NCBI GenBank assembly: GCA_020725385.1
Contig: DYFC01000055.1
Span: 1 to 43,806, forward strand
Reading direction: 5' to 3'
Length of the DNA stretch: 43,806 bases
Origin: Nitrospira japonica
Lineage (GTDB): Bacteria; Nitrospirota; Thermodesulfovibrionia; Thermodesulfovibrionales; SM23-35
Below are positions 1,014 through 19,546 of this stretch, piece by piece. Position numbers and translations under genes: made by a program. The notes under the pieces are model-generated. The model saw nothing but the letters and a program-made list of their open reading frames with translations. It searched no databases and was not told the origin of the DNA. How positions within the stretch are numbered: position 1 is the stretch's first letter; every line of letters starts with the position of its first letter.

Positions 1014-1670
1014 TCATGTAATCTCTGTGTGTCTTATCATTTTACCCTTGCACATGTAAATAATCATTTCACAGATATTTGTAGCGTGATCTGCTATTCT
1101 CTCAAGGTACTTCGCTATGTAGGTTCTTTTAACCGCCACAGGAATATTTTTAGGATCCTTTATCATAAAGGCAAGTAGTTCCTCAAAGTTTTTTACTGTA
1201 AGCTCATCAACCTCATCATCTCTTTTAATAACTTCATATGGAAGTCTTGAACAGCCGGTAACGAATGAGTCAAGTGAATCCCGGACCATTGATTGTGTAA
1301 TTTCTGCCATTTTTGGTATGTTCACAAAAGGTTTCAATTGTGGTTCCTGATTAAGCTCAATGGCTCTTTCAGCTATGTTTACTGCGAGGTCACCCATTCT
1401 TTCGAGATCTGTTGTTATTTTCATCGCAGTTGTAATTAATCTTAAATCCCTTGCCATTGGTTGTCTGAGAGCAATAAGCCTTACACATTCTTCATCGATT
1501 TTAACATCAAGAGCATTTACCAGATGGTCTCTTTTAATAACCTGCTTTGCAAGTTCGGTGTCCCTCTCAACAAGCGATTTAACAGAATCACGTATAGCAT
1601 TCTCGACCATATACCCGAGTTTGAGAATGTTTTCCCTTAATTCATTCAATTCATTTTCAAAAATAGACAT
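1014..1670 (-). CDS. phoU: Phosphate signalling protein PhoU
   Basis: QPMARDLR, DLERMGDLA, RDDEVD, YLERIADHATNI; directly downstream of pstB. Confidence 0.97.
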   Translation of the reverse strand: MSIFENELNELRENILKLGYMVENAIRDSVKSLVERDTELAKQVIKRDHLVNALDVKIDEECVRLIALRQPMARDLRLITTAMKITTDLERMGDLAVNIAERAIELNQEPQLKPFVNIPKMAEITQSMVRDSLDSFVTGCSRLPYEVIKRDDEVDELTVKNFEELLAFMIKDPKNIPVAVKRTYIAKYLERIADHATNICEMIIYMCKGKMIRHTEIT

Positions 1671-2434
1671 TATCCAAATCTCCCTGTAATATATTCTTCT
1701 GTTAACTTATTAGCAGGATTCACAAAAATAGTATCGGTATTTCCGAATTCAATCAATTCACCAAGATACATAAAGGCAGTATAATGTGATATTCTTGCTG
1801 CCTGCTGCATGTTATGGGTTACTATTACTATAGTAACAGTTTTCTGTAATTCCTGTAGAAGATTTTCAATATGTGCTGTAGATATCGGGTCAAGAGCAGA
1901 TGTAGGCTCATCGAAAAGTATCACTTCCGGTTGTTGTGCAAGCGAACGGGCAATGCAAAGTCTTTGCATCTGTCCGCCTGACAGGCTTAACCCTGAATCA
2001 TTCAATTTGTCTTTAACTTCTTTCCATAGATCAGCTTTTATCAAAGCTTGCTCGACTATCTCATCAAGAGCGCTTTTCTTTTTTATTCCACGAAGCTTTG
2101 GACCATATGCTACATTTTCATATACTGAACTCGGAAAAGGATTGGGTTTTTGGAAAACCATTCCTACCCTCCGCCTTAATTCAATTACATCTGTATTTTT
2201 ATCGTAAATGTCGATATTATGAAAAAGCATTTGACCTGATGTCCTCGAAGAAGTTATAAGATCATTCATTCTATTCATCGCTCTAAGCAATGTAGATTTT
2301 CCACAGCCTGAAGGACCTATAATGGCAGTTATTCTATTGCTGCTTATATTTAAATTAACATCTTTAACTGCCTGAAAATCTCCATACCATACATTGAAGT
2401 TTTTTATCTCAAAAATATTTTTTTCTTCTACCAT
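1670..2434 (-). CDS. pstB: Phosphate ABC transporter ATPase
   Basis: [36 protein letters not shown]-terminal YITGRFG. Confidence 0.97.
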
Positions 2435-3327
2435 GCTCTCTTTTTTCTCTGTTTTAATCTCAAGATTATTCCGAGAAGATTCATTGCAAGAACTATGACA
2501 ATTAATACAAGCGCTGTACCATACTGAATCGGCCTTGTTTCTTCAATATGCGTCCCGGCAGTGGCAAGCACATAAATGTGATAGGGCAATGCCATAACCG
2601 GTTCAAAAACAGAACGTGGAACTCCCGGGCTGAAAAAGGCTGCTGCTGTAAACATAATAGGCGCTGTTTCACCCGAAACTTTTGCCGTACCAAGTATTGC
2701 TCCTGTAAGAATTCCCGGCATAGCTGTTGGCAGCACAACTTTCCATATAGTCTGCCATTTTGTTGCTCCACATGCAAGAGATGCTTCCTTGAAACTATAT
2801 GGCACTGCTTTCAAAGCTTCCTCTGATGTAGAAATAATATAAGGCAATATCATTATGGCAAGAGTCATTGAACCGGCAAGAAGACTCGTACCGAAGTTTA
2901 GCATAACCACAAAAACTCCAAGACCAAATAAACCAAAAACAACAGATGGTACTCCCGCAAGGGTATAAATAGACATCATTACTGACTTAAGCATGACCCC
3001 GGGTTTTGAGTACTCTGCAAGAAAAATAGCTGTTATTACTCCAACAGGTATAACAAGAACCATACATAAAATTGTAAGCAAGATTGTGCCCATAATTACC
3101 GGGAAAATTCCTCCCTTTGTCATAGCATCTATTGGTGGTTCTGTTATAAATTCCCAGCTTAATACCTGAAATCCGTTATAAAAAACAAAGGATAGAATGA
3201 GAAATAATGTAATAGCTCCTGAAAAACCCAGTGTTCTTATTAAAGAAAGAAAAAAACCCTGTTTAATATTCAACTTTCTTTTACAGGCAAGCTCAAATGG
3301 TTTATTCATATTTTCGATCGTATGCAT
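2428..3327 (-). CDS. pstA: Phosphate ABC transporter permease
   Basis: [34 protein letters not shown]; operon position. Confidence 0.95.
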
Positions 3328-4313
3328 TAGACTTTCTCACCTATCCTGACACTCCGATATTTTCTTGAAATGAAATCCGAAATCATACTCAAAACAAAAG
3401 TAATTAGAAAAAGAATTGCACCAACACCAAACAAAGCGTGATAGTGGAGACTTTTATAAGGAGCTTCTGCCATTTCTGCGGCAATAGCAGCAGGCATCGG
3501 TCGGGCAGCATCAAAAATCCAGTGAGGCACTACCGCTGCACCTCCGGCAACCATGAGGACAATCATTGTTTCTCCAATAATTGTCCCAATCCCGAGAATT
3601 ACAGCAACACTCAAGCCTGAAACAGATGCCGGTATTACAACCTTCCAGATTGTATGCCACTTATCAGCACCTAATGAATATGACGCTTCTCTATAAGTAC
3701 GGGGAACTGCTGTCAATGCATCTTCAGCAATACTTGCGATAACAGGAATTGCCCTTACCGTGAGCATTAAAGATGCAGTGGTAATATTCAAGCCTGAAGC
3801 AATAAATAGTTTGTCATAACAAAAATCAGCAAGTGTTGTTGATATAAACGGCAGATTTGTATTTCTTAACATTTCAGGCAATTTTTCCGAAAGTATTGGA
3901 GAGAGCCAGTTTGAAAGAATTGGTGCTATTATAACCATTCCGAAAAAACCAAGCACAACAGACGGAAAACTCGCCAACATTTCAATCAATGGTTTCAAAA
4001 ATTCTTTAACTTTATGATTTGCGACTTCCGCAATATATATAGCAGTCCCCAGCCCGAGAGGTATAGCCATTATAGAAGTTAGTAAAGTCACAGCAATAGT
4101 GCCTGCAATTAAAGGAAACATTCCAAAATCCGGAGGCTCGTGGGTCGGGTACCATTGAGAACCGAAAATTACACGGATTACCCCTTCTTTATAAAAAATA
4201 TAAAAAGCCTCTTTGAAAAGAAAAAATCCTATCAATAGAAGAACTATAACCGACAATAATCCTATTGAGCTTACACTTATTTCAACTAATCTTTCTTTTG
4301 TCTGCCATTTCAT
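3327..4313 (-). CDS. pstC: Phosphate ABC transporter permease
   Basis: FGMFPLIAGT, EMLASFPSVVLG, EDALTAVP, GETMIV; operon position. Confidence 0.95.
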   Translation of the reverse strand: MKWQTKERLVEISVSSIGLLSVIVLLLIGFFLFKEAFYIFYKEGVIRVIFGSQWYPTHEPPDFGMFPLIAGTIAVTLLTSIMAIPLGLGTAIYIAEVANHKVKEFLKPLIEMLASFPSVVLGFFGMVIIAPILSNWLSPILSEKLPEMLRNTNLPFISTTLADFCYDKLFIASGLNITTASLMLTVRAIPVIASIAEDALTAVPRTYREASYSLGADKWHTIWKVVIPASVSGLSVAVILGIGTIIGETMIVLMVAGGAAVVPHWIFDAARPMPAAIAAEMAEAPYKSLHYHALFGVGAILFLITFVLSMISDFISRKYRSVRIGEKV

Positions 4314-4339
4314 AAATTGAATATATTTATATTAATGAA

Positions 4340-4386
4340 TATAGGGTACAGGGTATAATATTCATAGTTTATCCCTGTACCCTATA
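4340..4386. repeat. 14-bp perfect inverted repeat between pstS and pstC (mRNA-stabilising or attenuating hairpin)
   Basis: TATAGGGTACAGGG 4340-4353 / CCCTGTACCCTATA 4373-4386, 19-nt loop; function inferred from position. Confidence 0.75.
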
Positions 4387-4404
4387 GCGTTATTTGAAAA
4401 AATT

Positions 4405-5220
4405 TTAGTTTATACTCACATATTTTACTTCATTAACAACTTTTTGTCCTTCTTTTGAGAGCATGAAATCAATAAACTTTGCTATATTGCCAGCAGGTTT
4501 TCCATTGGTGTACATAAATAATGGTCTTGCAACAGGCCATGAACCATCTCTTACAGTTTTAGGAGATGCTGTTTTTCCATTAACCATAAGAGGTTTAACT
4601 GTCTTATCAAGATAACCTATTCCAATATATCCAATTGCATATTTATTTTTCGCAACAGTCTGAACAGCCTGACCGTTAGATGCAACAAGCAAAGCATCTG
4701 CTCTGACCTTATCACCTTTTAAAACTTTTTCTTCCCAGACTTCATATGTGCCCGAGCTTGTATCCCTTGAAACTACTGATATTGGTCTATTAGGTCCACC
4801 GAGCTCTTTCCAGCTCGTTATCTTACCATTGTAAATATCCCTTAATTGTTCCAGTGTCAAATCTTTTATATTCATTGAAGGATGAACAACCGGAACTATA
4901 CCATCAAGAGCTATTTTATGGCCTGTTAAAACTATGTTTTTATTTTTTGCAGAATCTATCTCTTTTTCCTTTGCCTCACGGGAACTTGTTGCAATATCTG
5001 TAGTGCCATCTATTAAAGCTTTAATACCGGTACCTGAGCCACTTCCTGAAACATAAACTTTAATATTTGGATTTTTCTTCATAAAAACTTCTGCACCTTT
5101 TTGGGCAATCGGTAAAACTGTAGTCGAACCATCAATCCTGATTTCCTCACCGAACGAGGCGCCAGCAAACAATGTCAATAACATAAAAGACATAACCAAA
5201 ATTACTAATTTCTTCATCAC
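4405..5220 (-). CDS. pstS: Phosphate ABC transporter substrate-binding protein
   Basis: Signal peptide, DGSTTVLP, GSGSGTG, SRDTSSGT, WPVARPLFMY; SD AGGAGG. Confidence 0.97.
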   Translation of the reverse strand: MMKKLVILVMSFMLLTLFAGASFGEEIRIDGSTTVLPIAQKGAEVFMKKNPNIKVYVSGSGSGTGIKALIDGTTDIATSSREAKEKEIDSAKNKNIVLTGHKIALDGIVPVVHPSMNIKDLTLEQLRDIYNGKITSWKELGGPNRPISVVSRDTSSGTYEVWEEKVLKGDKVRADALLVASNGQAVQTVAKNKYAIGYIGIGYLDKTVKPLMVNGKTASPKTVRDGSWPVARPLFMYTNGKPAGNIAKFIDFMLSKEGQKVVNEVKYVSIN

Positions 5221-5236
5221 TTCCTCCTTTTGTTTT

Positions 5237-5291
5237 ACAATACTATCTGTTTGTTACATTAATGTTACAACTTTGTTAAGTTTATGTTACA
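5237..5291 (-). promoter_or_regulatory. Pho-box array (4 units, 11-bp period) and -10 for pstS
   Basis: + strand TGTTACA 5252, TGTTACA 5263, TGTTAAG 5274, TGTTACA 5285; sense -10 TATTGT 5242-5237. Confidence 0.85.
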
Positions 5292-5416
5292 TTACCACCT
5301 CCCTTTTATTTAAAAATTAGATAAATACTTAGTTAAGACATCAAATACACTGAAAAAACTAAATTTCTTCCAATCATTTTTTAAAGATATTATTATTTTT
5401 TTCATTTCCAATAATT

Positions 5417-5521
5417 TTATAAATAAGATTGAAAATAAAAAATATTAGGTTCCATCTTAAAAACAAAGAAAATTGTTATTAATATAAAAACAAATGTCAG
5501 AATCGATAAAAAGAAAACCAT
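5417..5521 (-). CDS. Putative 34-aa single-TM peptide (below ORF-track cutoff)
   Basis: MVFFLSILTFVFILITIFFVFKMEPNIFYFQSYL*; ATG 8 nt after the -10 of a Pho-box promoter, no SD. Confidence 0.35.
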   Translation of the reverse strand: MVFFLSILTFVFILITIFFVFKMEPNIFYFQSYL

Positions 5522-5529
5522 TTAATTGT

Positions 5530-5573
5530 AATATAAGAAAACTTTGTTACAGTAATATTAAAAGGTTGTTAAA
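5530..5573 (-). promoter_or_regulatory. Pho-box array (3 units) and -10
   Basis: + strand TGTTACA 5545, TATTAAA 5556, TGTTAAA 5567; sense -10 TATATT 5535-5530. Confidence 0.7.
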
Positions 5574-5591
5574 TTAAGAAGAAAAATTATT

Positions 5592-5777
5592 TTAACATTG
5601 CGTTGTTAAAACCATTCTATCAATTTCGGTTTTATTAATCCTCAGATTATAAAAAGGGCATTTTTTATAACTGGCTTTTTTACAGTATTCTTTTAACTGA
5701 AATTTGCTTGGACAATACATCTTTTCCTGTGCTTTACACATAAAATTGATGAGTTTAATTAGATGCGGGCATTTCAT
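5592..5777 (-). CDS. Small Cys4 (putative Zn/Fe-binding) hypothetical protein A, 61 aa
   Basis: C3-x10-C14-x17-C32-x7-C40-P; GAGG SD; ATGA overlap with upstream gene; paralog at 7335..7535. Confidence 0.75.
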   Translation of the reverse strand: MKCPHLIKLINFMCKAQEKMYCPSKFQLKEYCKKASYKKCPFYNLRINKTEIDRMVLTTQC

Positions 5778-6064
5778 TGTTTTACCTCGAACAATAATTT
5801 CTGGAAACCTGTTTCTGATGATATTTCCTTAATATAATCTAAAATGTCTACATTATTAGGTTCATACCTTATTATTATATTTCCGTTAAAAGGATTAAGA
5901 TGTATATCTTTAATCCCGCAAGAAGACATAAAAGCTGAAGACTTTTTTAAATTTCTATATGAATAATCCCAGGAAAGTTTTTTAACTAAAGGGGCTTCTA
6001 ATCTGACATAACCTAAAATATCATCATGATATATAATTTTATTCTGAGTGGAAAAACTTTTCAT
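5774..6064 (-). CDS. HMA2-like (heavy-metal-associated fold) stand-alone protein
   Basis: H..LGYVRL...GIKDIHLNPFNGNIIIRYEP resembles the HMA2 pattern; SD GGAGG 6077-6073 favours ATG 6064 over 6079. Confidence 0.6.
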   Translation of the reverse strand: MKSFSTQNKIIYHDDILGYVRLEAPLVKKLSWDYSYRNLKKSSAFMSSCGIKDIHLNPFNGNIIIRYEPNNVDILDYIKEISSETGFQKLLFEVKQ

Positions 6065-6094
6065 ATAAATTTCCTCCATTTTTTAAATTATCTT

Positions 6095-6149
6095 ATTTAA
6101 CCACTCATACCTTACAGGAATATTACAACTATATTAAATATTGGTGAAA
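6095..6149 (-). promoter_or_regulatory. Pho-box-like array (3-4 degenerate units)
   Basis: + strand CCTTACA 6110, TATTACA 6121, TATTAAA 6132, GGTGAAA 6143; -10 position reads TTAAAT (imperfect). Confidence 0.6.
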
Positions 6150-6166
6150 CTTTGAATTAATACGGA

Positions 6167-6192
6167 AAAAGCAAAGAGCTAAGAGCATAGAG
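6167..6192 (+). repeat. 26-bp direct repeat, copy 1 (heptamer-based)
   Basis: AAAAGCAAAGAGCTAAGAGCATAGAG, identical at 6859-6884. Confidence 0.9.
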
Positions 6193-6263
6193 CGAACAAA
6201 ATACCAACATTATTCCGGTTGAATTTTTAATCCAGGGAGATCTGAAGAAAAACGATAGGCTTT

Positions 6264-6611
6264 CTATTTGGAAGAGGTAAGCACCATATCTGATAATTTA
6301 TTTCTGCATGATCTTTTAAGAACATTTTCTCTATTTTCTTTTAATAATTCTTCTATTTCTCTCTCGGCAAGATAACATTTTGCTTCCATTACATTTTTAA
6401 ACTCGGTTTGAACCCATTCCCCTGAAGCATTTAAAGGATTTTTCAAATACACAATCTTTCTGAACTTGTCATATAAAATCTCGGTATTGCTCATGGAAGA
6501 TTTTTCATAACGAAAGTACGGATATAAAAAAGCAAGTGCAACTAATAAAAAACACAATAAGAGTATGAATATCAACATTTTCGTTTTTCTATTTTCAAAG
6601 CTCAGGCTCAT
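6264..6611 (-). CDS. Hypothetical membrane-anchored protein
   Basis: Hydrophobic segment LIFILLLCFLLVALAFLYPYF; sigma54-type promoter upstream; no family recognised. Confidence 0.65.
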   Translation of the reverse strand: MSLSFENRKTKMLIFILLLCFLLVALAFLYPYFRYEKSSMSNTEILYDKFRKIVYLKNPLNASGEWVQTEFKNVMEAKCYLAEREIEELLKENRENVLKRSCRNKLSDMVLTSSK

Positions 6612-6622
6612 AACATCTCATA

Positions 6623-6638
6623 AGCATTTTTTATACCA
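6623..6638 (-). promoter_or_regulatory. Sigma54 -24/-12 promoter
   Basis: Sense TGGTAT-AAAAA-ATGCT with exact GG-N10-GC spacing. Confidence 0.65.
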
Positions 6639-6698
6639 GCATTCTATTTACATAACATACTGTTATTATTCGATTTTTATCCAGTAACCACTCGCTTA

Positions 6699-6715
6699 CT
6701 GACAATTTTTGTCAG
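6699..6715. promoter_or_regulatory. Palindromic candidate enhancer-binding-protein site
   Basis: CTGACAA-TTT-TTGTCAG, about 60-80 bp upstream of the sigma54 promoter. Confidence 0.55.
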
Positions 6716-6780
6716 GCAAAATATGGAAGTTATATGCTTTTATTTATACTGACGAATTTTATGATTAAGACGTTATGTAT

Positions 6781-6824
6781 AGTAGCAAAATTTTAATATT
6801 CCTGTAACATTCCTGTGTTATCTT
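6781..6824 (+). promoter_or_regulatory. Pho-box array (2-3 units) and -10 for arsC
   Basis: AGTAGCA 6781, TTTAATA 6792, TGTAACA 6803; TATCTT 6819-6824, 9 nt after the last unit. Confidence 0.6.
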
Positions 6825-6858
6825 TAAACTTATTACAAAAAAATAAATTTAAAGAGCT

Positions 6859-6884
6859 AAAAGCAAAGAGCTAAGAGCATAGAG
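6859..6884 (+). repeat. 26-bp direct repeat, copy 2
   Basis: Identical to 6167-6192, preceded by an extra AAGAGCT unit. Confidence 0.9.
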
Positions 6885-6925
6885 AAAAAAGTAAAAATTG
6901 ATAATATAAATTCAGGAGGTATTAG

Positions 6926-7333
6926 ATGAAAGTAATGTTTCTTTGTACAGGCAATTCCTGCCGTTCTCAAATGGCAGAAGGATTTGCAAGAGAGCTTGGT
7001 AAAGATAAAATTATTGCTTATAGCGCAGGACTAAATCCTCAGGGGGTCAATCCAAGAGCAGTTGCTGTGATGAAAGAAGCCGGCATTGACATATCTTCAC
7101 AGCAGTCTAAATCTATTGACCCAGAATTATTGAAACAGATGGATATCATAATTACTCTTTGTGATAACGCCGCAGAATCATGCCCTCTTACACCACCAGG
7201 AATAAAAAGAATTCACTGGTCATTGAAAGACCCGGCAAAAGCAGAAGGTACAGAAGAAGAAATCCTGAATGAATTCAGAAAAATTAGAGATGAGATAAAA
7301 TCAAGGATACTTGAGTTGCTTGAAACCGTATAA
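6926..7333 (+). CDS. arsC: Thioredoxin-dependent arsenate reductase (LMW-PTP fold)
   Basis: CTGNSCRSQMAEG P-loop, TLCDNAAESCP, HWSLKDPA; SD AGGAGG. Confidence 0.92.
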   Translation: MKVMFLCTGNSCRSQMAEGFARELGKDKIIAYSAGLNPQGVNPRAVAVMKEAGIDISSQQSKSIDPELLKQMDIIITLCDNAAESCPLTPPGIKRIHWSLKDPAKAEGTEEEILNEFRKIRDEIKSRILELLETV

Positions 7334-7334
7334 A

Positions 7335-7535
7335 TTAAAACTTTTTTCTTAATATCTTTGCAAGGAATATCGGACATTCATCATAGTTATCGGTATTGCA
7401 GCATATTTCTTCTTTTTGCGAATCAAGCACCATTGATGATAAGGATGCTATACAAACGCTGAATTCGTTGTAAGGGCAGGATATGCTATTCATTATGGTT
7501 TCTGGATTTTTCTGACTGATTGTTTCTATGTTCAT
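7335..7535 (-). CDS. Small Cys4 hypothetical protein B, 66 aa
   Basis: C20-x7-C28-x17-C46-x7-C54-P; SD GAGGTG favours ATG 7535 over 7610; paralog of 5592..5777. Confidence 0.75.
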   Translation of the reverse strand: MNIETISQKNPETIMNSISCPYNEFSVCIASLSSMVLDSQKEEICCNTDNYDECPIFLAKILRKKF

Positions 7536-7552
7536 AATCACCTCTTTATAGA

Positions 7553-7596
7553 AAGATAACAAATAAATATTACACGATGATGAAAACCATATTAAA
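7553..7596 (-). promoter_or_regulatory. Pho-box array (3 units) and -10
   Basis: + strand TATTACA 7568, GATGAAA 7579, TATTAAA 7590; sense -10 TATCTT 7558-7553. Confidence 0.65.
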
Positions 7597-7602
7597 TTTA
7601 TA

Positions 7603-8820
7603 TCAAGCAAACCTCGTTTTGATTGTATTTACAAATCTGTACGTATAGTAAAATATTCCTTTTTCAGGGCATGGTATTAGCTGTGAATCGTTCATTATGA
7701 TATATCTATTCCCTCTCCATAAAACTTTATTGCTTAATAAAGGGATAAACCAGGTTAAGCCAATAAGAACATCTTTAATAGGCGCAAGAAGAAAAAGAAA
7801 CATGTTCATATCTGTTTTTATTGTCCTTCCTATATGTATGTCACCAATTACTTTAAGCGTACATACAAATAATGCAAAGCTAATTGTAATTAAAGAAGGG
7901 CTAAAAATCACAGGGAATATTGATAAAAATACTGAATTGCTCAACAACTCTGACAAATATTTTATACCTCCAATATGCCATCTCAGCTTTCCCCATCTGG
8001 TATGCCTGTTAAGAAACTGTCTTAACCCCCAATAGTTGTTTACATTCTTTATAATATGATTTGACAAAACAACTTTTTTACCTAAATTGTAAATTTTCTT
8101 TCCTAATATATAATCTTCAGCAAGCATGTCTTTGACTGATTCAAGACCACCGATAGCTTCTATATCCTTCTTCTTCATTAACATTGATTTGCCCACAACA
8201 CAAGGCATTTTCAGGAATCTATCAAGAAAACACACACTTCCTATCACAAAAGAATTTAAATGCAGATTCTCAAAAATAGAACCTAATGTATATCCTCCCG
8301 TGCCTTTTATAAGATTAGTTACAAGACCGGTTCCGGGATCATCAAATGGTCTGATTATTTCCCTAAGATAATTTTTTGATACCATAACATTGCTGTCGCT
8401 TATAAGAATATAATCATATTTTGCAATTCTATATGCAGGTATCAGATTATTTACTTTGGGATTTAACCCGGCGCAGCACTTTTCTACAAGCAAAGTTATT
8501 TTCTTTTCCGGATATTTTTCTTTTATTTTTTCTGCAACTTTGAAAGCCGGGTCATTATAATCCTGCAATGAAAATATTATTTCATATTCCGGATAATCCT
8601 GGTTACACATACTCTCTAAATTATCAAATAGATTGTCATCAAGACCTTTTAATGGTTTTAATACTGATATTCCCGGCAACCTCTCAAAGTTTCCGTCCCG
8701 GCGATTTATTCTTTGTTCAGCGCTGGTTATTAATATCTTTCTTATTGACCAAACCTGTAAAAAATATCCGATAAGACCTAAAACAACTATGAAAAAAATC
8801 ATTATTGTCAATATTCCCAT
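7603..8820 (-). CDS. Ceramide-glucosyltransferase/HpnI-like membrane glycosyltransferase (GT21/GT2-type)
   Basis: N-terminal TM, SVLKPLKG, NPKVNNL, ISDSNV, LAEDY, RHTRW ((Q/R)xxRW), C-terminal VLWRGNRY; SD AGGAG favours ATG 8820. Confidence 0.88.
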   Translation of the reverse strand: MGILTIMIFFIVVLGLIGYFLQVWSIRKILITSAEQRINRRDGNFERLPGISVLKPLKGLDDNLFDNLESMCNQDYPEYEIIFSLQDYNDPAFKVAEKIKEKYPEKKITLLVEKCCAGLNPKVNNLIPAYRIAKYDYILISDSNVMVSKNYLREIIRPFDDPGTGLVTNLIKGTGGYTLGSIFENLHLNSFVIGSVCFLDRFLKMPCVVGKSMLMKKKDIEAIGGLESVKDMLAEDYILGKKIYNLGKKVVLSNHIIKNVNNYWGLRQFLNRHTRWGKLRWHIGGIKYLSELLSNSVFLSIFPVIFSPSLITISFALFVCTLKVIGDIHIGRTIKTDMNMFLFLLAPIKDVLIGLTWFIPLLSNKVLWRGNRYIIMNDSQLIPCPEKGIFYYTYRFVNTIKTRFA

Positions 8821-8831
8821 ATTCTCTCCTT

Positions 8832-9524
8832 TCAATTTCTAAAAAGCGTAATTGCAACGCCTCTGTTATTTCTTATGCACTGCTTTACAGATTCGGTGTT
8901 CTTTTCGCAATCAAGAAGTGTCTTCCATGAATAAATATGACGTGCTCTATGAAAATCACTGTTTGCAATATAGGGATATTTTTTGAGACTTATAACATTA
9001 AAGACATCGTCTCTATTAGCTATCTCCCATGCATCAATGTATCTCGCATATTTTTCTCTGTTGTTCCATAAAAAAAGTGTGTCTCTATTAGTCATATCCG
9101 ATGTATGATGGGGATGACATGCAATTATTAGCGCATCCTGTTCTTTGGCTTCAAGAAATATTTTCTCGTAATCCCAGCAAGCAGGGATAAACTCTTTTAT
9201 GTCAATAATAAGAATATGCGCTGATTTATCAGGTGAAAGATAATTTTTTGTTATTTCTACCCCGGGAATTATCAACATGCCGTATTTTTCCCATGCTCTT
9301 TCAGCTTCCCGGTTTATTTCTGAAATGTATTTATTAAAATTATCTTTCTTTACCGAAAATTTGAAACGATGAGCGAGTTTTCCGAAAGTATTATCACCAT
9401 TAACTACATGGTCAGTGATTGAGATTACATCAAATCCAGCCTGCCCGAAAAGGTCAACAGTTCTGCGAAGTTCAACAGAACCATCAGAATATTTGGTGTG
9501 AATATGAAAATCACACAATAACAT
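8832..9524 (-). CDS. PHP-domain phosphoesterase
   Basis: DFHIHTKYSDG, ITDH, PGVE, AHIL, CHPH, NSDFH. Confidence 0.9.
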   Translation of the reverse strand: MLLCDFHIHTKYSDGSVELRRTVDLFGQAGFDVISITDHVVNGDNTFGKLAHRFKFSVKKDNFNKYISEINREAERAWEKYGMLIIPGVEITKNYLSPDKSAHILIIDIKEFIPACWDYEKIFLEAKEQDALIIACHPHHTSDMTNRDTLFLWNNREKYARYIDAWEIANRDDVFNVISLKKYPYIANSDFHRARHIYSWKTLLDCEKNTESVKQCIRNNRGVAITLFRN

Positions 9525-9531
9525 TAATATG

Positions 9532-9586
9532 ATAATAAGATTTTTAAATTACAACTTGATTAAAGATTCATGAAATTTTTGTTAAA
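9532..9586 (-). promoter_or_regulatory. Pho-box array (4 units) and -10 for the PHP-GT operon
   Basis: + strand AATTACA 9547, GATTAAA 9558, CATGAAA 9569, TGTTAAA 9580; sense -10 TATTAT 9537-9532; ATG 7 nt further on, no SD. Confidence 0.7.
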
Positions 9587-10814
9587 AATTTCTACTTTTA
9601 ATCAGATGGGAATAATATATTGCAGCTTTTGTTGGTTTACGCTCCAATGTATCAAAATTCACTTTATAGAGGCCGAATCTTGCATCGAGACCCTGAAGCC
9701 ATTCATAATTGTCAATAAGTGACCAATAGAAATAACCTCTAAGATCAATACCCTCCCTGATACATTTTTCAACAACATCTATATGGCTTTTCATAAATCT
9801 TATCTTTTTCCTGTCATTTCTTGTAGCAATACCATTTTCAGTAATAATAAGGGGAATACCAAGTTTAGAAGCATATCTTAGCACTTTTTCAAGACCACGC
9901 GGGTGAATTTCCCAACCCATATCTGTAAGCCCGTAACCATCAAGATCTCTGTGCCTAAGTTCCACCCCCATCTTTTTAAGGGGATTGAATCTCAAATGAA
10001 CCCTCGTGTAATAGTTGACCCCGAAAAAATCGAGTTTATCTTTAATAGGCAAAGAAATTTTCATAACTCTCCTGAAAGGAAATTTAAGATGCAGGGTTCC
10101 TGTTAGAAAAGCATCAAGCAGTGAGTGATTGTAGAAATATTTAGCGATTTTTGAAAGCAACCGGTCGGTAGGATTCCATCTTCTCCATGGAGCGAATGCC
10201 GCCATATTGTGGGCAACCCCGACCTTTGCATGAGGGTTATAGACGTGGATTATATCATATACTCTTCCATGACAGGTTAATATGTTCTGCAAAGCTCTAA
10301 CAGCAAGGGAAACATCTTTTATACCCGGAGGCATGCATCCCTCTAAATAGCCACCGAGCAAGAGAACATACGGTTCATTGAAAGTTATCCAATAATTTAC
10401 TCCTTTTATTTTCTTTATAATTCTCCCGGCGAATTCAGTGAATTTATCGACTGATTCATCTTTATGCCATGGAAACTTTTTTATAAACCATAGCGGATGT
10501 GTAAAATGGTGAAGAGTTAAAAATGGCTCTATATTGCTATCCGTTAGAATGTCAATTATCTCTTGATAATGATTTACGACATTTTCATCCCAGATTTTTT
10601 CTTTAGGCTGAATCCTGCTCCATTCAATCGAAAAACGGTAGGCATTGACTCCTAACTCCTTTAATAATTTTAAATCCTTTTTGTAAAGATTATAATGGTC
10701 AGTAACATTAGGGTTGAAATTTAGTATCGAATCCCATTCTGCCCAGTCTGCATAAGGAGATCCTTCAAGTTGAAATGCAGAAGTTGCCACACCCCAAAAA
10801 AATTTATTTTTCAT
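9582..10814 (-). CDS. Glycoside hydrolase family 1 (beta-glycosidase)
   Basis: FFWGVATSAFQLEG, YRFSIEWSRI, TFNEP (acid/base), ITENG (nucleophile), WSLIDNYEW; no signal peptide. Confidence 0.95.
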   Translation of the reverse strand: MKNKFFWGVATSAFQLEGSPYADWAEWDSILNFNPNVTDHYNLYKKDLKLLKELGVNAYRFSIEWSRIQPKEKIWDENVVNHYQEIIDILTDSNIEPFLTLHHFTHPLWFIKKFPWHKDESVDKFTEFAGRIIKKIKGVNYWITFNEPYVLLLGGYLEGCMPPGIKDVSLAVRALQNILTCHGRVYDIIHVYNPHAKVGVAHNMAAFAPWRRWNPTDRLLSKIAKYFYNHSLLDAFLTGTLHLKFPFRRVMKISLPIKDKLDFFGVNYYTRVHLRFNPLKKMGVELRHRDLDGYGLTDMGWEIHPRGLEKVLRYASKLGIPLIITENGIATRNDRKKIRFMKSHIDVVEKCIREGIDLRGYFYWSLIDNYEWLQGLDARFGLYKVNFDTLERKPTKAAIYYSHLIKSRNF

Positions 10815-10875
10815 GTTAGATTATTTTACCCTCATTATATAAAGAATATTTTATTGAAAAATAACTAATAGTGAA

Positions 10876-10903
10876 AGAAAAGCCCTCCCGAATAGGGAGG
10901 GCT
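10876..10903 (-). terminator. Intrinsic terminator after the porin gene
   Basis: AGCCCTCCC/GGGAGGGCT 9-bp stem followed by TTTCTTTC on the minus strand. Confidence 0.8.
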
Positions 10904-10931
10904 GGGGTTAGCAGTGCTTTATATTAGGCGT

Positions 10932-12071
10932 TTATAAAGCAACCTGCAGTGTGAGCTGTATTCTTTTGTCATCCTTTTTGCTGGAATCTTCATATTTCAC
11001 AGTGTCGTAATCAAGGATGATCATATTCTTGTGAGGCTTGTCAAGATGATATGCTGCTCCTATGATATACCTTGTATTTTCATTATCATCAAGATCGGTA
11101 TTCGGGTCAAACTTATCGTATCTTCCAAATATCGAAAATTGTTTCATGGGTTTTACTTCTGCAAATAATGAATAACCATCTTTCTTAAATTCATCATCAC
11201 CATTCTGATTTCCTTTTCCTTTGTAGTACTGAGCTGTAGCAGTTATGTACTGATGCTCATAGCTCAGCATACCAAGATTGACATTCCAATCAGGGTCTGT
11301 ATCCTTGTTACCTTTTCCTGTTATTCCGAAGTAGGAAACCTGTAAACCGGGCACAATATCAGGAAGCGGTCTTATTGTAATTCTGCCTTCTAATGCCTTG
11401 TTGTCATTTTTCTCTGCTGCGTGATAACCACCACCGTTATATATACCGAAGGACACACTACCATATCTTCCGGGATAATAGCTATTTACACTTTTCTTAT
11501 AATCATCATTCATTTCCCCGCCGAGCAGAGATACAAAAGTAAGACCAAAATCAGCTGAATTAAATGTTTTATTTCTTTCGATGAACATCGTATCCTGTGC
11601 ACGATAGAAGTTCACATGCTCTTCAAAATCAAGCCATGGCATGTGAACAACACCTGCTTCTATAAAAGGTTTTGTTAAGAATGCGAAATCAGGAAGTTTG
11701 AATTTACCATAAGCATATTTAATTCTTACCTGAATTGAATCCGAAAGCTTGCTATCTTTGATCGATGCTTGTGTTGTATCAAAAGTAATATGAGCATCGA
11801 ACCACGGCATTAGTTCTTTTGTTATTCTTACATAACCTCTCTTGATTGCAAATTTGTTCCTATCAATTCCATCACCAGCCGAACCGCCTACATCCGAGCC
11901 CTCACCACTCATGTAGGAAAGATACCATAGCAAACCAAATTTCAGGTCCTTTAAAGATTTCACAACTTTCTCAATATCCTTTTGGGATATTTCCTCTTCA
12001 GCAGCTAATGCTGAACCTGTTACTGTGAGCATTAAACATAGACTCACTAACAAAATAACTACTTTCTTCAT
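10932..12071 (-). CDS. Outer-membrane porin, probably phosphate-selective (OprO/OprP-like)
   Basis: Signal peptide, FAIKRGYVRI, RIKYAY, amphipathic beta-strands, GRYDKFDP; Pho-box promoter. Confidence 0.75.
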   Translation of the reverse strand: MKKVVILLVSLCLMLTVTGSALAAEEEISQKDIEKVVKSLKDLKFGLLWYLSYMSGEGSDVGGSAGDGIDRNKFAIKRGYVRITKELMPWFDAHITFDTTQASIKDSKLSDSIQVRIKYAYGKFKLPDFAFLTKPFIEAGVVHMPWLDFEEHVNFYRAQDTMFIERNKTFNSADFGLTFVSLLGGEMNDDYKKSVNSYYPGRYGSVSFGIYNGGGYHAAEKNDNKALEGRITIRPLPDIVPGLQVSYFGITGKGNKDTDPDWNVNLGMLSYEHQYITATAQYYKGKGNQNGDDEFKKDGYSLFAEVKPMKQFSIFGRYDKFDPNTDLDDNENTRYIIGAAYHLDKPHKNMIILDYDTVKYEDSSKKDDKRIQLTLQVAL

Positions 12072-12172
12072 GCTAATTCCTCCTTTTTAAGATTTTTTTG
12101 TTGTACAAAAAGCTTTCTATATTTATTTTCTTGATACCCCAATTTTGAATTTCCGAAAATATTAATTTTGTT

Positions 12173-12227
12173 AATTTAATATTTGAATGTTACATGGATA
12201 TTACAATTCCGTTAACTTTCAATTAAT
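12173..12227 (-). promoter_or_regulatory. Pho-box array (3-4 units) and -10 for the porin
   Basis: + strand TGTTACA 12188, TATTACA 12199, CGTTAAC 12210, AATTAAT 12221; sense -10 TAAATT 12178-12173. Confidence 0.8.
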
Positions 12228-12460
12228 TTTAAATGGCAAAATACAGTTGTACGGGATAACAAATAAAAAGCAAAGAACAGAGAGCAAAATAAAGAGTGGA
12301 AAAGGAACTAAGTTGCCAAAATTCCAGGTAACAGAGGATGTAAGGGGTAAAGCGTGAGATGTGAAAACGTAAAATTATTCAATGTGTTACATTCAAATTT
12401 ATATGTCCTGTCTAATTGAGATATTAACAGGTTATTGAGGTCAATAAATCAATATAAATA

Positions 12461-14233
12461 TTACTCAGACGGAGCAATTATATGCACGGCTGTTCCAACA
12501 CCTTCTGTGCTTTCAATAAACATTTCCCAGCCATGCGCTCTAACAAGATGTTTTACTATTGCGAGGCCAAGACCTGTTCCACCAAGTTCCCTCGAGCGAG
12601 CTTTATCGACTCTGTAAAATCTTTCCCCTAAACGTGGCAAATACTTACCGGGTATTCCGGTTCCTGTATCTTCTACAACAATATCAATGCAATCTTTTTC
12701 TTCATCTTGAATTTTGAATCTTGAATTTTGAATCTTTATTTTAATCCCACCGTTGTTTGTAAATTTAATCCCGTTGTCAACGAGATTCATAAGTATCTGT
12801 ATGAGCCTGTCTCTATCTGCTTTGATATACTTAATACCGGATGGCAGTTCTTTATTTAAATAAAGCTTTTTGGAACCGGCTTTTTCAGAAAGAGTCTTAA
12901 TCACCAAATCTATTGCTTCTTCGAGATTAACATCTGTCTTTTTAATAGTGACATCTCCAAGTTCGATGCCGGATAGAGTCAAAAGATCATTAACAAGACA
13001 ATTCAATCTTTCACTATTTGCCTTGATTGTCTGAAGAAATTTTCTTGCATTTTCTCTATCATCAATTGCTCCATCAAGCAAGGTTTCGGCAAATCCTTTT
13101 ATGGCTGTAATAGGTGTTTTTATCTCATGTGATACATTAGCAACAAAATCTTTTCTAACTTCTTCGAGCTTTTTAAGTCTTGTAATATCGTGAAAAGTTA
13201 AAACAACTCCTGACAGTTTTCCGGAATTTTCAAATGAATGAAATGGAGAAGCTGTAACAACTATAAAAAGTTCTTTTGGGCTCGAAATTGTAAGCTCTTT
13301 TGATATTCTGTCATTTTTCTCCGCTACCATATCAATCATTTCCATTAGTTCAGGCTTACGAAGTGCTTCAAGAAGAGTTTTACCTTCAATACCGGAATTA
13401 ATTCCGAATATCTCTTTAACTGAATTATTATGCATTATTATTTTCCCTCTCAAATCTGCAAGCACAAGTCCATCGGATAAATTATAGATAATTGCCTCAA
13501 CCTTCTTTTTTTCGTCTTCGCTCTGTTTCAGCCTCTTTTGAAGTTCCTCAGCCATTTTACTTATATTCATTCCGAGTTGTCCGAGTTCATCTTTTTCGTT
13601 TAAAAAAAGCCTTCTTTTAAAATTACCTTCAGCCACATCTTTTGAAAAATCCGCAATTTCTTCTATGGTCCTTGTAACTTTTCTGGTCTGAATTATACCT
13701 ATCATGAGCGCTACAAAGGAAAATAGAATAGCCACAGAAATTATTCTAAATCTTATCTTATTGACAGATTTTGTTATCTCATTTAATGGCATAGAAAGCC
13801 TGAGAAATTTTTTATGTTCATCATTCATTGATATTGCAAGATAAAATTGATCGTGCTTTAAGGTACTGCTGAATCTTATCGAACTGCCGGCTCCACTTAT
13901 GAATGCATCTCTTATTTCAGGCCTGTTCAAATGATTTTCCATATGTTCGGATGGCTCATCAGAATCTCCTATTACTCTGCCATCATGATCAATTATTGTT
14001 ACTCTTGCACCTGTAATATTTTTGTAATGCTTGCAAAAATCATCGAGATTCCCTGAAAAAGACAACGGAATTTTTTCCTGTATAATTTTGGCATTCACAA
14101 GAAGATTTTCTCTAAGACTGTTGACATAGGTTTCTTTGATTTGCTTTGAAAGATACAATTCAAGTGAAATCAATAAAACAGGCGTGAGAATCAAATATAT
14201 AAAAAGAATTCTTCTAAAAAGTGAATGTTTCAT
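12461..14233 (-). CDS. phoR: Phosphate regulon sensor histidine kinase
   Basis: Two TMs, ENHLNRPE, HAMP, PAS, FVANVSHEIKTP, ERFYRVDKARSR..GGTGLGLAIVKH. Confidence 0.93.
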   Translation of the reverse strand: MKHSLFRRILFIYLILTPVLLISLELYLSKQIKETYVNSLRENLLVNAKIIQEKIPLSFSGNLDDFCKHYKNITGARVTIIDHDGRVIGDSDEPSEHMENHLNRPEIRDAFISGAGSSIRFSSTLKHDQFYLAISMNDEHKKFLRLSMPLNEITKSVNKIRFRIISVAILFSFVALMIGIIQTRKVTRTIEEIADFSKDVAEGNFKRRLFLNEKDELGQLGMNISKMAEELQKRLKQSEDEKKKVEAIIYNLSDGLVLADLRGKIIMHNNSVKEIFGINSGIEGKTLLEALRKPELMEMIDMVAEKNDRISKELTISSPKELFIVVTASPFHSFENSGKLSGVVLTFHDITRLKKLEEVRKDFVANVSHEIKTPITAIKGFAETLLDGAIDDRENARKFLQTIKANSERLNCLVNDLLTLSGIELGDVTIKKTDVNLEEAIDLVIKTLSEKAGSKKLYLNKELPSGIKYIKADRDRLIQILMNLVDNGIKFTNNGGIKIKIQNSRFKIQDEEKDCIDIVVEDTGTGIPGKYLPRLGERFYRVDKARSRELGGTGLGLAIVKHLVRAHGWEMFIESTEGVGTAVHIIAPSE

Positions 14234-14934
14234 TCCTGATTTGCTTCAAAAAAATAACCGATTCCGCGAAGGGTTTTTATATATTTAGGTTTAGCCGGAT
14301 TTTCTTCTATGCTTGAGCGAAGTCGTCTTATATGGACATCAACCGTTCTCGGTTCCACAAATGCTTCACCTCTCCATACTGCATCGAGAAGTTGATCTCT
14401 ACTGAAAACCCTCCCTTTTCTTTCAGCAAGATATAGAAGCAATTTAAACTCAGTAGCACTCAGTTTGACAGGCTTATCATTAACAGTAACAATGTATCTT
14501 TCCCTATCTATTACCAGATTTTCTATTCTTAATATTTTTTCGGGTTCAATTTCTTTAGCAGTTCTTCTAAGAATAGCTTTGATTCTTGCTATTAATTCGC
14601 GCGGGCTGAATGGTTTTGTTATATAATCATCAGCACCCATCTCAAGCCCTAATATCCTGTCCACCTCTTCACCTTTTGCAGTAAGCATAATTATAGGGAT
14701 TTTAGAAGTTTTTTGATCATTTCTTAAAATCTTGCAAAGTTCAATTCCTTGTATCCCCGGGAGCATTAAATCAAGAATAATTAAATCAAATGTATGTTTT
14801 CTGATAGTCGCAAGAGCTGTTTCTCCATCTGAAGCTGTATCAGTAATAAAACCTTCTTTTTTCAAATTATAAGTAATGAGTTCTCTTATATCGCTTTCAT
14901 CATCAACAACGAGTATGTGTTTTGTGTTTGCCAT
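14230..14934 (-). CDS. phoB: OmpR-family phosphate regulon response regulator (PhoB/PhoP)
   Basis: VVDDE, LDLMLP, GADDYITKPF, RTVDVHIRRLR; coupled to phoR. Confidence 0.92.
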   Translation of the reverse strand: MANTKHILVVDDESDIRELITYNLKKEGFITDTASDGETALATIRKHTFDLIILDLMLPGIQGIELCKILRNDQKTSKIPIIMLTAKGEEVDRILGLEMGADDYITKPFSPRELIARIKAILRRTAKEIEPEKILRIENLVIDRERYIVTVNDKPVKLSATEFKLLLYLAERKGRVFSRDQLLDAVWRGEAFVEPRTVDVHIRRLRSSIEENPAKPKYIKTLRGIGYFFEANQE

Positions 14935-16108: not shown

Positions 16109-16402
16109 TTAAGCCTTTTTGGATTCCAGCCTAACAACAACTTTTGCATCAAGGGCGTTCGCTATCTTTTTCAAAGTAGAAATTTTAGGGAGTCCATGGG
16201 TAAGTCCCTCGATCCGGGAAATCGTAGACTGAGGCATGCCGGCCTTCCTGGCTACTTCTTCCTGTGTCATTTTTTTCTTCAGCCTTTGCTCAATGATGCT
16301 CCGTGCAAGCTCGTACTCGGGAAGAAGCTTTTCATATTCCTCCCTGACCTTTTTATTCTTGAGCAACTCCCTTACATGTTCTTCATACGTTATCTTTTTC
16401 AT
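16109..16402 (-). CDS. XRE-family HTH antitoxin (HigA-like)
   Basis: MTQEEVARKAGMPQSTISRIE..PKISTLKKIANAL; downstream of toxin. Confidence 0.9.
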   Translation of the reverse strand: MKKITYEEHVRELLKNKKVREEYEKLLPEYELARSIIEQRLKKKMTQEEVARKAGMPQSTISRIEGLTHGLPKISTLKKIANALDAKVVVRLESKKA

Positions 16403-16403
16403 G

Positions 16404-16757
16404 TTACACCTCTCTTGAAAGATACTCTTTCATTCTCTGTTCTGCGATACCTATCTCCTTTGCAGGAGTCTTGTCCGTCTTCTTTATGAAACCGTGCAAT
16501 AGGACAAATTTCTTGCCTGTGTGGGCAAAGTATAATATTCTGCTGATACCTGATTTATCCTTAATCCTGATTTCATACAACTTCTTGTGTCCTGTAATCT
16601 GTCTCACATAGGGTTTTTTTACATGAATTCCATATTCCTGGAGCAACCGGGTGATAAAAATATACTTTGCCTGACCTTCAGCGGATAAGGAATCGATAAA
16701 CTCTTTTACAGGACTTTTTCCTTCGCAAGTCACATAGTATTCGATTGACCAATCCAT
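16404..16757 (-). CDS. RelE/ParE-superfamily toxin (HigB/Gp49-like)
   Basis: GKSPVKEFI, LYEIR, RILYF, LLHGFIKKTDKTP. Confidence 0.9.
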   Translation of the reverse strand: MDWSIEYYVTCEGKSPVKEFIDSLSAEGQAKYIFITRLLQEYGIHVKKPYVRQITGHKKLYEIRIKDKSGISRILYFAHTGKKFVLLHGFIKKTDKTPAKEIGIAEQRMKEYLSREV

Positions 16758-16762
16758 TGTTT

Positions 16763-16791
16763 AGTATATAGCATGCATGCTATAAAATCAA
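16763..16791 (-). promoter_or_regulatory. TA promoter with 18-bp perfect palindromic operator
   Basis: TTGATT-17-TATACT; TATAGCATGCATGCTATA at 16767-16784. Confidence 0.85.
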
Positions 16792-16795
16792 TCCC

Positions 16796-18291: not shown

Positions 18292-18330
18292 TCCCTTTAC
18301 AAAAGTAAATCCAAAAGCTAACATGTCATT

Positions 18331-18736: not shown

Positions 18737-18752
18737 AGCTTTATATTTCAGT

Positions 18753-18926
18753 GTGCCTGTTACGCTAGCTTGCCACTCCGCAGGCACGAGTTTTTCCATA
18801 GCCCCCGTCGCTCAGGCACTATGCTTGCGTTATCCCGCAAAAGCTGCGCCAGTCACTAAACTTGCTATTTGACTGCAAACAAGTCCATGCCTGTTACAGC
18901 TTCTGCATGGATGCAAGCCCGTGCCT
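18753..18926. other. GC-rich structured non-coding element (hairpin plus four-way junction)
   Basis: Nested inverted repeats listed in findings; identity unknown. Confidence 0.5.
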
Positions 18927-19188
18927 TCGCTCCACCTGCCCTTTACTCTACAAATAAGACTAAAAGGCTGTAAGATTCTTTATTTATTAAAAATTTTGTC
19001 TTAAATTTAATACCGTTATTTTTTATTACCCATAATTTTATTACTGATATGATGAAGTTTATATTTTATTAATGTTATTCAGACCATCTACGTTTTTTAA
19101 TCAGGGTTTGTAGTAGAAGATGTTATAGAATTCTGATCTTTTCAAAAACGTCTTCCCTTGCGTCCGAAAAAAAAAGACTTCGAAAGTG

Positions 19189-19545: not shown

Positions 19546-19546
19546 T

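Follow-up and report, generated by a model that had tools for sequence, protein, structure and literature searches.

The Pho regulon is among the best-studied stress responses of bacteria, yet its make-up outside the model organisms is poorly known. In Escherichia coli, YjdM (PhnA), a small protein with an N-terminal four-cysteine zinc ribbon, is encoded with the Pho-controlled phosphonate genes. The remodelling of lipids by PlcP and a glycosyltransferase under phosphorus deficiency has been described (PMC4796936), and a preprint presents CoBaHMA as a branch of the HMA superfamily that has conserved basic residues and an unknown function (bioRxiv 10.1101/2024.07.07.602159). Here we analyze a stretch of 43,806 nucleotides (nt) from Nitrospira japonica (assembly GCA_020725385.1, contig DYFC01000055.1, positions 1–43,806 of the forward strand), the whole of which is referred to as the window hereafter. 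It contains two very small genes, A and B, each of which encodes a protein with four conserved cysteines. These Cys4 mini-proteins belong to a large undescribed family of Nitrospirota, found mainly in Thermodesulfovibrionales-type lineages, and the family is well linked to phosphate starvation by gene order and by Pho-box-like sequences.

Both open reading frames (ORFs), of 61 and 66 amino acids (aa), had been picked out in an earlier note on this DNA and were found as described there (coordinates in Table 1). They share the motif CP-x(6-9)-C-x-A-x15-C-x4-Y-x2-C-P; the gap between CP and the next Cys is 9 residues in A and 6 in B, and the spacing of the last three Cys, C-x17-C-x7-C, is the same in both. 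A carries 6 Cys within its 61 residues. For B, a longer alternative frame starting with TTG also exists (7335–7610, 91 aa). A GAGG-type ribosome site lies 5–8 nt 5′ of both genes. Because the ATG of A overlaps the stop codon of orf101 (ATGA), the two genes form an operon in which A comes second. B starts 67 nt 3′ of the gene for a GT21 glycosyltransferase. The host genome (2.46 Mb, 71 contigs, 34.7% G+C) was translated in six frames, and the motif was counted against a chance expectation given by the means over twenty residue shuffles. The core C-x-A-x15-C-x4-[YF]-x2-C occurred 5 times (shuffle mean 0.1), and the core preceded by CP 6–10 residues upstream occurred 4 times (shuffle mean 0.0). 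The full pattern is matched by A, by B and by two overlapping tandem ORFs on contig C37, and the fifth core match is off-frame on contig C31. The hidden Markov model (HMM) of the family matched exactly 4 ORFs of the host genome, with A at E 5.8e-18 (A itself is part of the model).

The proposal of the earlier note that A and B are paralogues holds, at the profile level only. BLASTP of A against B gave no in-register match but merely a 22-residue out-of-register alignment (E 0.010), and a search of the host genome with B did not recover A, the copy found being that on C37 (45% identity, E 2e-13). When 26 B-type and 53 A-type sequences were aligned with each other by hhalign, a probability of 92.7% was obtained (E 4.3e-7, 51 columns) with all four Cys in register. 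As judged from these profiles, A and B are paralogues, a relationship that the two sequences by themselves do not reveal.

The size of the family became clear from a 49-sequence profile, which was compared by HMMER with 1.84 billion cluster representatives: 828 matched at E ≤ 1e-3 and 141 at E ≤ 1e-10, and the 150 matches listed are 55–163 aa long. In the 49-sequence alignment, C3, C14, A16, C32 and C40 are invariant; in an alignment of 150 sequences, the four Cys are again invariant, and both Pro and the Ala are conserved above 90%. The Cys spacing (x7–11, x17, x7) was found in 138 of the 147 members that could be parsed, and the mean number of Cys per domain is 4.2–4.6. A five-sequence profile matched 99 of the 201 genomes that were sampled from the order of the host; these often have 2–8 matches each, and tandem copies are frequent. 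The family is present in 117 of 301 Nitrospirota genomes sampled, and it is spread unevenly between families of the phylum (e.g., 51 of 64 genomes in one and 0 of 28 in another). To sample the gene surroundings, a pattern of the B-type C-terminus was searched in one genome per GTDB species, which gave 85 confirmed loci, of which 80 were kept; since they were found with the B-type alignment only, these 80 related loci sample B-type genes. The titles of 79 of them are of the Nitrospirota type (e.g., Nitrospiria, Nitrospira sp., Thermodesulfovibrionales, Candidatus Sulfobium, Nitrospirae, Nitrospiraceae and Thermodesulfovibrionia), and the remaining one is titled only "Bacterium". The family is real, ancient and lineage-restricted.

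The members can be grouped into three subtypes, A, B and C, all represented in the 49-sequence alignment and usually encoded side by side. The A-type begins with M-K-C-P-H-L and has an internal P-S-x-F-Q-L-x-E-Y-C; its domains are basic (mean pI 8.6, net charge +3.4). The B-type has a strongly conserved C-terminal C-P-I-F-L-[SA]-K-V-L-R-R, and its domains are close to neutral, their C-terminal helix being basic and amphipathic. The C-type is marked by a D-I-D-L segment. In some matches (e.g., P0083, P0104 and P0118), A-type and B-type features are combined, as judged by eye.

The earlier note had recognized no named family, and this was borne out by the searches against Pfam, NCBIfam and the PDB. 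In Pfam-A, the only match of A was CAMSAP_CH at 14.7 bits (cutoff 27), and B had zero matches at the reporting threshold of E ≤ 1; NCBIfam gave zero matches for either protein, and a sequence profile search of the PDB gave 0 matches at E ≤ 10. When the 150 members were scanned singly against Pfam (E ≤ 0.1), the best family was DUF7838 (3 of 150, E 1.1e-3), no family exceeded 3 members, and zinc-ribbon models gave single weak matches (1 of 150 each). Every cluster found in the ESM Atlas was labelled "hypothetical protein", and the taxon most often represented was Nitrospirota. Searches for homologues in a word index found A itself with one 49-aa fragment, and B itself with one 48%-identical protein; these results were not counted as evidence for orphan genes, because the family is too short and divergent for such an index. 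The four conserved Cys form no CxxC or CPxC pairs of the zinc ribbon or rubredoxin kind, and the 4Fe-4S ferredoxin pattern CxxCxxCxxxCP is absent from both the 49- and the 150-sequence alignments, Cys-Pro alone being shared with it. A literature search found no paper describing the family, which does not rule out that one exists. A small Cys4 protein inside a stress regulon has precedents as a kind, and the family has no curated family or detectable structural relative.

The link to phosphate starvation proposed in the earlier note can be examined from the genes around the homologues. In sixteen loci of 14 to 20 kb, where 141 neighbours in other genomes were scanned against Pfam, the recurrent order is GH1, PHP, GT21, B-type, sometimes a small ORF, A-type and pstS-C-A-B-phoU; PhoB-like regulators, PIN-PhoH, arsC-like phosphatases, HMA_2 proteins and c-di-GMP enzymes occur near this cluster. 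The 80 B-type loci were counted by tblastn of the window proteins with 6-kb flanks, which are complete in 41 loci. The pst or phoU genes were found in 27 of the 80 loci, GH1, PHP or GT21 in 39, and either set in 59; among the 41 loci with full flanks, either set was found in 35. Nearly all of these marker genes are co-directional with the B-type gene. In 26 of the 80 loci there is also an A-type gene, usually just upstream of the pst genes, and at least two family members were detected by HMM in 36. Seven loci without pst or GT21 carry, among their neighbours, a PAF-AH-like lipase, Metallophos, CDP-diacylglycerol pyrophosphatase and phosphatidylserine decarboxylase, as well as HMA_2 proteins, multi-zinc-ribbon proteins and DUF3562. 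The gene-neighbourhood check suggested in the earlier note, together with an HMM, thus places phosphate genes or the GH1-PHP-GT21 set near most B-type loci.

The partner of A in its operon, orf101, also recurs. Its homologues were found by tblastn in 8 of the 80 B-type loci, and a CoBaHMA-like ORF was found by HMM in 19, compared with a single one, orf101 itself, in the entire host genome. Of ten aligned sequences (orf101 and nine homologues), 8 matched PF19991 (best E 3.2e-9); the window copy, 27–47% identical to its nine homologues, had no PF19991 match at E ≤ 0.01. Translation of orf101 likely starts in fact at the second ATG (position 6064), 8 nt downstream of a GGAGGA sequence. Small proteins of other kinds also recur beside B-type genes, namely multi-zinc-ribbon proteins of 92–113 aa (Zn_ribbon_InsA/Zn_ribbon_8-like; loci L036, L098 and L100) and DUF3562 (L098 and L132). 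The Pho clusters of Nitrospirota seem to be rich in small, probably metal-binding proteins. In locus L046 (4791–9949), the genes directly 5′ of the series HMA_2, B-type, A-type and pstS encode a P-type cation ATPase whose N-terminus carries an HMA_2 domain, a stand-alone HMA_2 protein and a DUF5132 protein. In a preprint on cyanobacterial carbonate biomineralisation, HMA_2/CoBaHMA and DUF5132 proteins are described as neighbours of a marker gene (bioRxiv 10.1101/2024.07.07.602159).

Pho-box-like sequences provide the other part of the evidence. Upstream of pstS, four half-sites follow one another with a period of 11 nt, the last TGTAAC-N5-TGTAAC lying 49 nt before the start. A repeat finder detected a 28-nt repeat in four copies, at 5254, 5547, 6112 and 7570, that is, upstream of pstS (twice), orf101 and B. 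For the half-sites of B, the 11-nt register of this repeat is better than a reading as a dyad with 13-nt spacing. The box of orf101-A contains TGTAAT-N5-TGTAAG at −48, like that of pstS (−49) in form and distance. The claim that each mini-protein gene stands behind a Pho-box promoter is thus upheld in part: a box is present 48 nt upstream of orf101 and a degenerate one 53 nt upstream of B, and A, as the second gene of its operon, has no promoter of its own. The strict dyad TGTAA-N6-TGTAA occurs 14 times in the genome on both strands, and 4 of these are on this 43.8-kb contig, compared with 0.25 expected. Three of the four precede pstS (by 49 nt), orf101-A (48 nt) and a porin gene (134 nt) in the proper orientation; the fourth is inside phoR on the opposite strand. 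Among the ten dyads on other contigs, nine precede no ORF or just a frame of 40–52 aa, and the tenth (contig C60) lies 42 nt before a 156-aa ORF.

In the related loci, gene starts were extrapolated from the tblastn alignments, so that the dyad distances there are approximate. Of 16 pstS genes, 10 have a strict dyad in the preceding 250 nt, as do 12 of 77 B-type genes, where 0.021 would be expected for a stretch of 250 nt; in the 12 B-type cases it lies about 53–76 nt before the start. These 12 B-type genes are in loci where GT21 does not precede the B-type gene; upstream of GT21, the dyad was found within this distance in 0 of 31 loci. The boxes follow a lineage-specific consensus, TGTAAY-N5-TGTAAY, about 50–60 nt upstream of start codons. 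A sigma-70 scan of 5100–7750 gave nothing above the shuffle level, and 0 intrinsic terminators were found in the same region; because of this absence, transcription could continue from GT21 into B, and from A into pstS. A search of 4000–12600 against Rfam gave one sub-threshold Phe_leader match and nothing further.

The structures of the two proteins were predicted by AlphaFold2. The model of A (mean pLDDT 68.9) has strands at 6–8 and 12–14 and helices at 25–32, 35–39 and 41–52, and that of B (mean pLDDT 63.6) has helices at 39–46 and 55–64. Foldseek found no match in the PDB at E ≤ 1e-3, and the best Z-scores of VIA-align against 48,161 chains, 2.5 for A and 2.1 for B, are too weak to name a fold; a missing match of these models is not proof of a new fold. 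Among the top weak rows for both models are SF3A2 (6qx9_A2) and TUT1 (9j8p_A), aligned over 38–44 residues as a hairpin followed by a helix; we take the aligned ranges to be matrin-type zinc fingers, that of TUT1 being at the N-terminus. From their invariance, the four Cys probably bind metal as one centre per chain, either Zn or Fe-S. These two are equally open, given the two Cys-Pro motifs, the anaerobic lifestyle of the hosts and the absence of CxxC knuckles.

Taken together, A and B may be read as paralogues of an undescribed family of about 60 residues, cytoplasmic and belonging to the PhoB regulon, which is metal-centred and acts through protein contacts. We favour this reading in full by a small measure, and we consider that part of it which says that a Cys4 family belongs to the Pho regulon to be highly probable. 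That part draws on the synteny and the Pho-box-like dyads, and the link to phosphate starvation is well supported by these sequence features. In the mechanism that we propose, PhoB~P would switch on orf101-A at low phosphate, and B would be switched on too, either from the weak box in front of it or through transcription that continues from GT21. Each mini-protein would form a domain of about 45 residues folded around one metal centre (Zn2+ or Fe-S) held by the four Cys, with a predicted fold of a beta-hairpin and helices in which each CP is at a turn or a helix start. The folded module would then work through protein–protein contacts. Such action is the most likely one in view of the tiny size, the absence of an evident enzyme fusion among the 150 matches listed, the paired genes and the coupling of A to the CoBaHMA-like gene. 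Candidate contacts are those between paralogues (B with A or C) and that of A with the translationally coupled CoBaHMA protein, and the target may be Pst/PhoU/PhoR signalling or the PHP-GT21 remodelling of phospholipids to glycolipids. A more specific form of this reading, to which we give only a low probability, is that the Cys4 types A, B and C and the small CoBaHMA protein make up a new module with which anaerobic Nitrospirota respond to phosphate starvation, namely a heteromeric switch that depends on metal or Fe-S. Through such a switch, Pst/PhoR signalling, or the replacement of phospholipids by glycolipids, would be coupled to the state of the cell in metal or redox terms.

Several observations weigh against the regulon reading. 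The linkage to pho genes is not general, since 21 of the 80 B-type loci have neither pst nor GH1, PHP or GT21 within their flanks; 8 of these carry a strict Pho dyad, and several are short contigs. The C37 pair of the host (C37:66484–66938; loci L004 and L006), a B-type of 68 aa and a C-type of 83 aa joined by an ATGA overlap, has no Pho neighbourhood; the genes around it are unrelated housekeeping ones (BamD, MscL, DNA-alkylation repair, SAM-cycle and molybdopterin genes). Its promoter region has TTTCTATAAAGA in common with the region upstream of B in the window, and the half-sites there are 14 nt apart, not 11. In the related loci, not one of the 24 A-type genes, 7 orf101 homologues and 32 GH1 genes has a strict dyad in the 250 nt that precede it. 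The box of B is degenerate, and the relaxed pattern, which has 20 matches in the genome and 8 in the first 15 kb of the window (0.12 expected; the PHP and arsC sites included), was chosen after the B site had been seen, so that this enrichment is partly circular for B. The confidence of the AlphaFold2 models of A and B is only moderate, and the related genomes are non-independent samples.

The mini-proteins might instead be accessory subunits or metallochaperones, supplying or holding metal for the PHP phosphoesterase or docking GT21 during the remodelling of phospholipids to glycolipids, without a role in signalling. This is rather unlikely in our estimate, yet the gene order offers something for it: in 31 of the 80 loci the B-type gene directly follows GT21 on the same strand, and the loci that lack GT21 still have lipid or phosphoester enzymes beside their B-type genes. 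It is at odds with the A-type genes, which track the pst operon rather than GT21, and with the many B-type genes that stand alone behind a Pho box of their own, where no such enzyme was detected. In addition, no enzyme fusion is evident among the best 150 matches, the longest three of which (97, 114 and 163 aa) were unscanned for extra domains. The earlier note had considered another role, that of a thiol-rich sink for arsenite. Here the proteins would be thiol-based binders of arsenite or soft metal that handle the As(III) which ArsC produces from arsenate taken up by Pst at low phosphate. The convergence of B on arsC, on which the note relied, is confirmed (their stop codons are 1 nt apart), the arsC of the window has a Pho-box-like dyad, and A is rich in Cys (6 in 61 residues). 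Only 8 of the 80 loci have arsC within 6 kb, where it follows the B-type gene on the same strand, leaving 72 without it, and no arsB, acr3 or arsA was found among 181 neighbouring ORFs scanned against Pfam. What is conserved is exactly four widely spaced Cys, not a vicinal triad: a check for vicinal Cys of the ArsD/ArsR type found no conserved triad, and CC doublets are confined to some of the B-type members. We therefore judge the role in arsenite handling improbable.

The frequency of tandem paralogous small genes (at least two in 36 of the 80 loci) and a B12-radical-SAM gene adjacent to the family gene in locus L132 could also suggest precursor peptides of a ribosomally synthesized and post-translationally modified product (RiPP). 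The scan of 181 neighbouring ORFs revealed no recurring maturase, protease or exporter, the domain is conserved along its full length without a split into leader and core, and A and B are predicted to fold in the models; this origin is accordingly a very improbable one. As for chance open frames with a coincidental motif, the failure of BLASTP to align A and B significantly in the right register and the nearly empty word-index searches would be expected on this view. It is refuted for practical purposes by the homologues, the 150-sequence alignment, the hhalign result and the shuffle test: hundreds of homologues keep invariant Cys at fixed spacing, 4–5 matches were observed where 0.0–0.1 were expected from shuffles, the genes keep their position and strand, and they have ribosome sites. 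Among these explanations, the metal-centred family of the PhoB regulon remains the preferred one.

The features of the window are collected in Table 1. Pfam and NCBIfam scans gave the island the order phoB-phoR, porin, GH1, PHP, GT21, B, arsC, orf115, orf101-A and pstSCAB-phoU.

Table 1 Genes and Pho-box-like elements of the Pho island (positions are those of the window)
Feature	Position	Strand	Remarks
pstS-pstC-pstA-pstB-phoU operon	1014–5220	minus	Directly 3′ of A
Proximal pstS Pho box	5253–5281	minus	TGTAAC-N5-TGTAAC and two more preceding half-sites; 49 nt upstream
Distal Pho-box-like element	5546–5574	minus	Between the A stop and pstS
ORF A	5592–5777	minus	61 aa; A-type Cys4 mini-protein; second gene of the orf101-A operon
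orf101	5777–6079	minus	101 aa; divergent CoBaHMA/HMA_2-like; first gene of the orf101-A operon
orf101 Pho-box-like element	6112–6138	minus	TTTAAT-N5-TGTAAT-N5-TGTAAG; 48 nt upstream of the orf101 ATG
orf115	6264–6611	minus	Predicted membrane-anchored protein
arsC Pho-box-like dyad	6792–6822	plus	124 nt upstream of arsC
arsC	6926–7333	plus	Thioredoxin-type arsenate reductase; TIGR02691, 186.3 bits (cutoff 174.3); convergent with B
ORF B	7335–7535	minus	66 aa from the ATG at 7535; B-type Cys4 mini-protein
B degenerate Pho-box-like element	7569–7597	minus	TTTCAT-N5-TGTAAT; 53 nt upstream of the B ATG
GT21 glycosyltransferase	7603–8835	minus	Conserved operon 5′ of B-type genes
PHP phosphoesterase	8832–9524	minus	Conserved operon 5′ of B-type genes
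GH1	9582–10814	minus	Conserved operon 5′ of B-type genes
Porin	10932–12071	minus	Porin_4, E 2.9e-7; strict Pho dyad 134 nt upstream
Porin strict Pho dyad	12189–12205		134 nt upstream of the porin gene
phoR-like kinase	12461–14233	minus	Pfam/NCBIfam scan
phoB-like regulator	14230–14934	minus	Pfam/NCBIfam scan

The GH1-PHP-GT21 operon is found, for example, in loci L036, L038, L044, L047 and L050 and in many of L054–L133. By analogy with PlcP-Agt, it could be a candidate for a PHP-type phospholipase and a glycosyltransferase that replace phospholipids by glycolipids at low phosphate. The GT21 protein scored 251 bits against the HpnI model, under its cutoff of 310. The porin is a candidate phosphate-starvation porin. 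Around orf115, homologues of which were found in 0 of the 80 related loci, two exact 26-nt direct repeats (6167–6192 and 6859–6884) flank this gene and the arsC-side Pho-box-like dyad; the repeat has just these two exact copies genome-wide. The orientation of arsC in the window is inverted relative to the related loci. The repeats, the homologue-less orf115 and the inverted arsC suggest that the stretch between B and orf101 has undergone a local insertion or rearrangement. Beyond the island, the region 16109–21565 contains a toxin-antitoxin-type pair (HTH/Gp49-like), an integrase-core (rve) gene, and genes for DndE and an SMC-like ATPase, the last two being of the DNA phosphorothioation type. 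This suggests that a mobile or defence region adjoins the Pho island.

These results mean that a family of several hundred sequence clusters, without a name, domain model or structure, is a regular component of phosphate-starvation clusters in Nitrospirota, a phylum of mostly uncultured and environmentally important anaerobes. Should the mini-proteins turn out to be regulators, phosphate signalling would gain an input that is sensitive to metal or redox state; as enzyme accessories, they would point to how Nitrospirota economise on phosphorus. The lineage-specific Pho-box consensus and the candidate PHP-GT21 lipid-remodelling operon are further leads, and phosphate starvation would be a first physiological context for CoBaHMA domains.

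Among the described systems, the likeness to U1-like or matrin-type fingers is a weak structural match only (hairpin, then helix), and at Z 2.1–2.5 it is not evidence of kinship; 6qx9_A2 and 9j8p_A are eukaryotic RNA-binding C2H2 fingers with 9–12% sequence identity, unlike A and B. The likeness to CoBaHMA/HMA_2 applies to orf101, not to A and B, and the orf101 of the window has lost part of the signature; the genes for which the preprint discusses the domain belong to cyanobacterial carbonate biomineralisation, not to phosphate starvation (bioRxiv 10.1101/2024.07.07.602159). With the PlcP-glycosyltransferase system (PMC4796936), the window appears to share the co-encoding of a phosphoesterase and a glycosyltransferase in a phosphate-starvation context, a likeness in logic only. 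It differs from that system in its predicted enzymes, a PHP-domain phosphoesterase, a family GT21 transferase and an added GH1 hydrolase.

Zinc ribbons and other zinc-finger mu-proteins (Zn_ribbon_8, Zn_ribbon_InsA and HVO_2753-like) resemble the family in size, in the four Cys and in the probable single metal site, and zinc-ribbon proteins are also neighbours in some of the clusters; unlike the classical zinc ribbons, the family lacks CxxC or CPxC knuckles, and its predicted fold is a hairpin with three helices. The Zn_Ribbon_YjdM model was matched neither by A and B (Pfam, E ≤ 1) nor by the 150 members (E ≤ 0.1). YjdM has paired CxxC knuckles, whereas the family has four single Cys that are 7–11, 17 and 7 residues apart. 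Like YjdM/PhnA, A and B are small cytoplasmic Cys4 proteins encoded among phosphate-starvation genes, and if the heteromeric switch described above were real, it would be a regulatory layer without a counterpart in the Pho systems of Escherichia coli or Bacillus.

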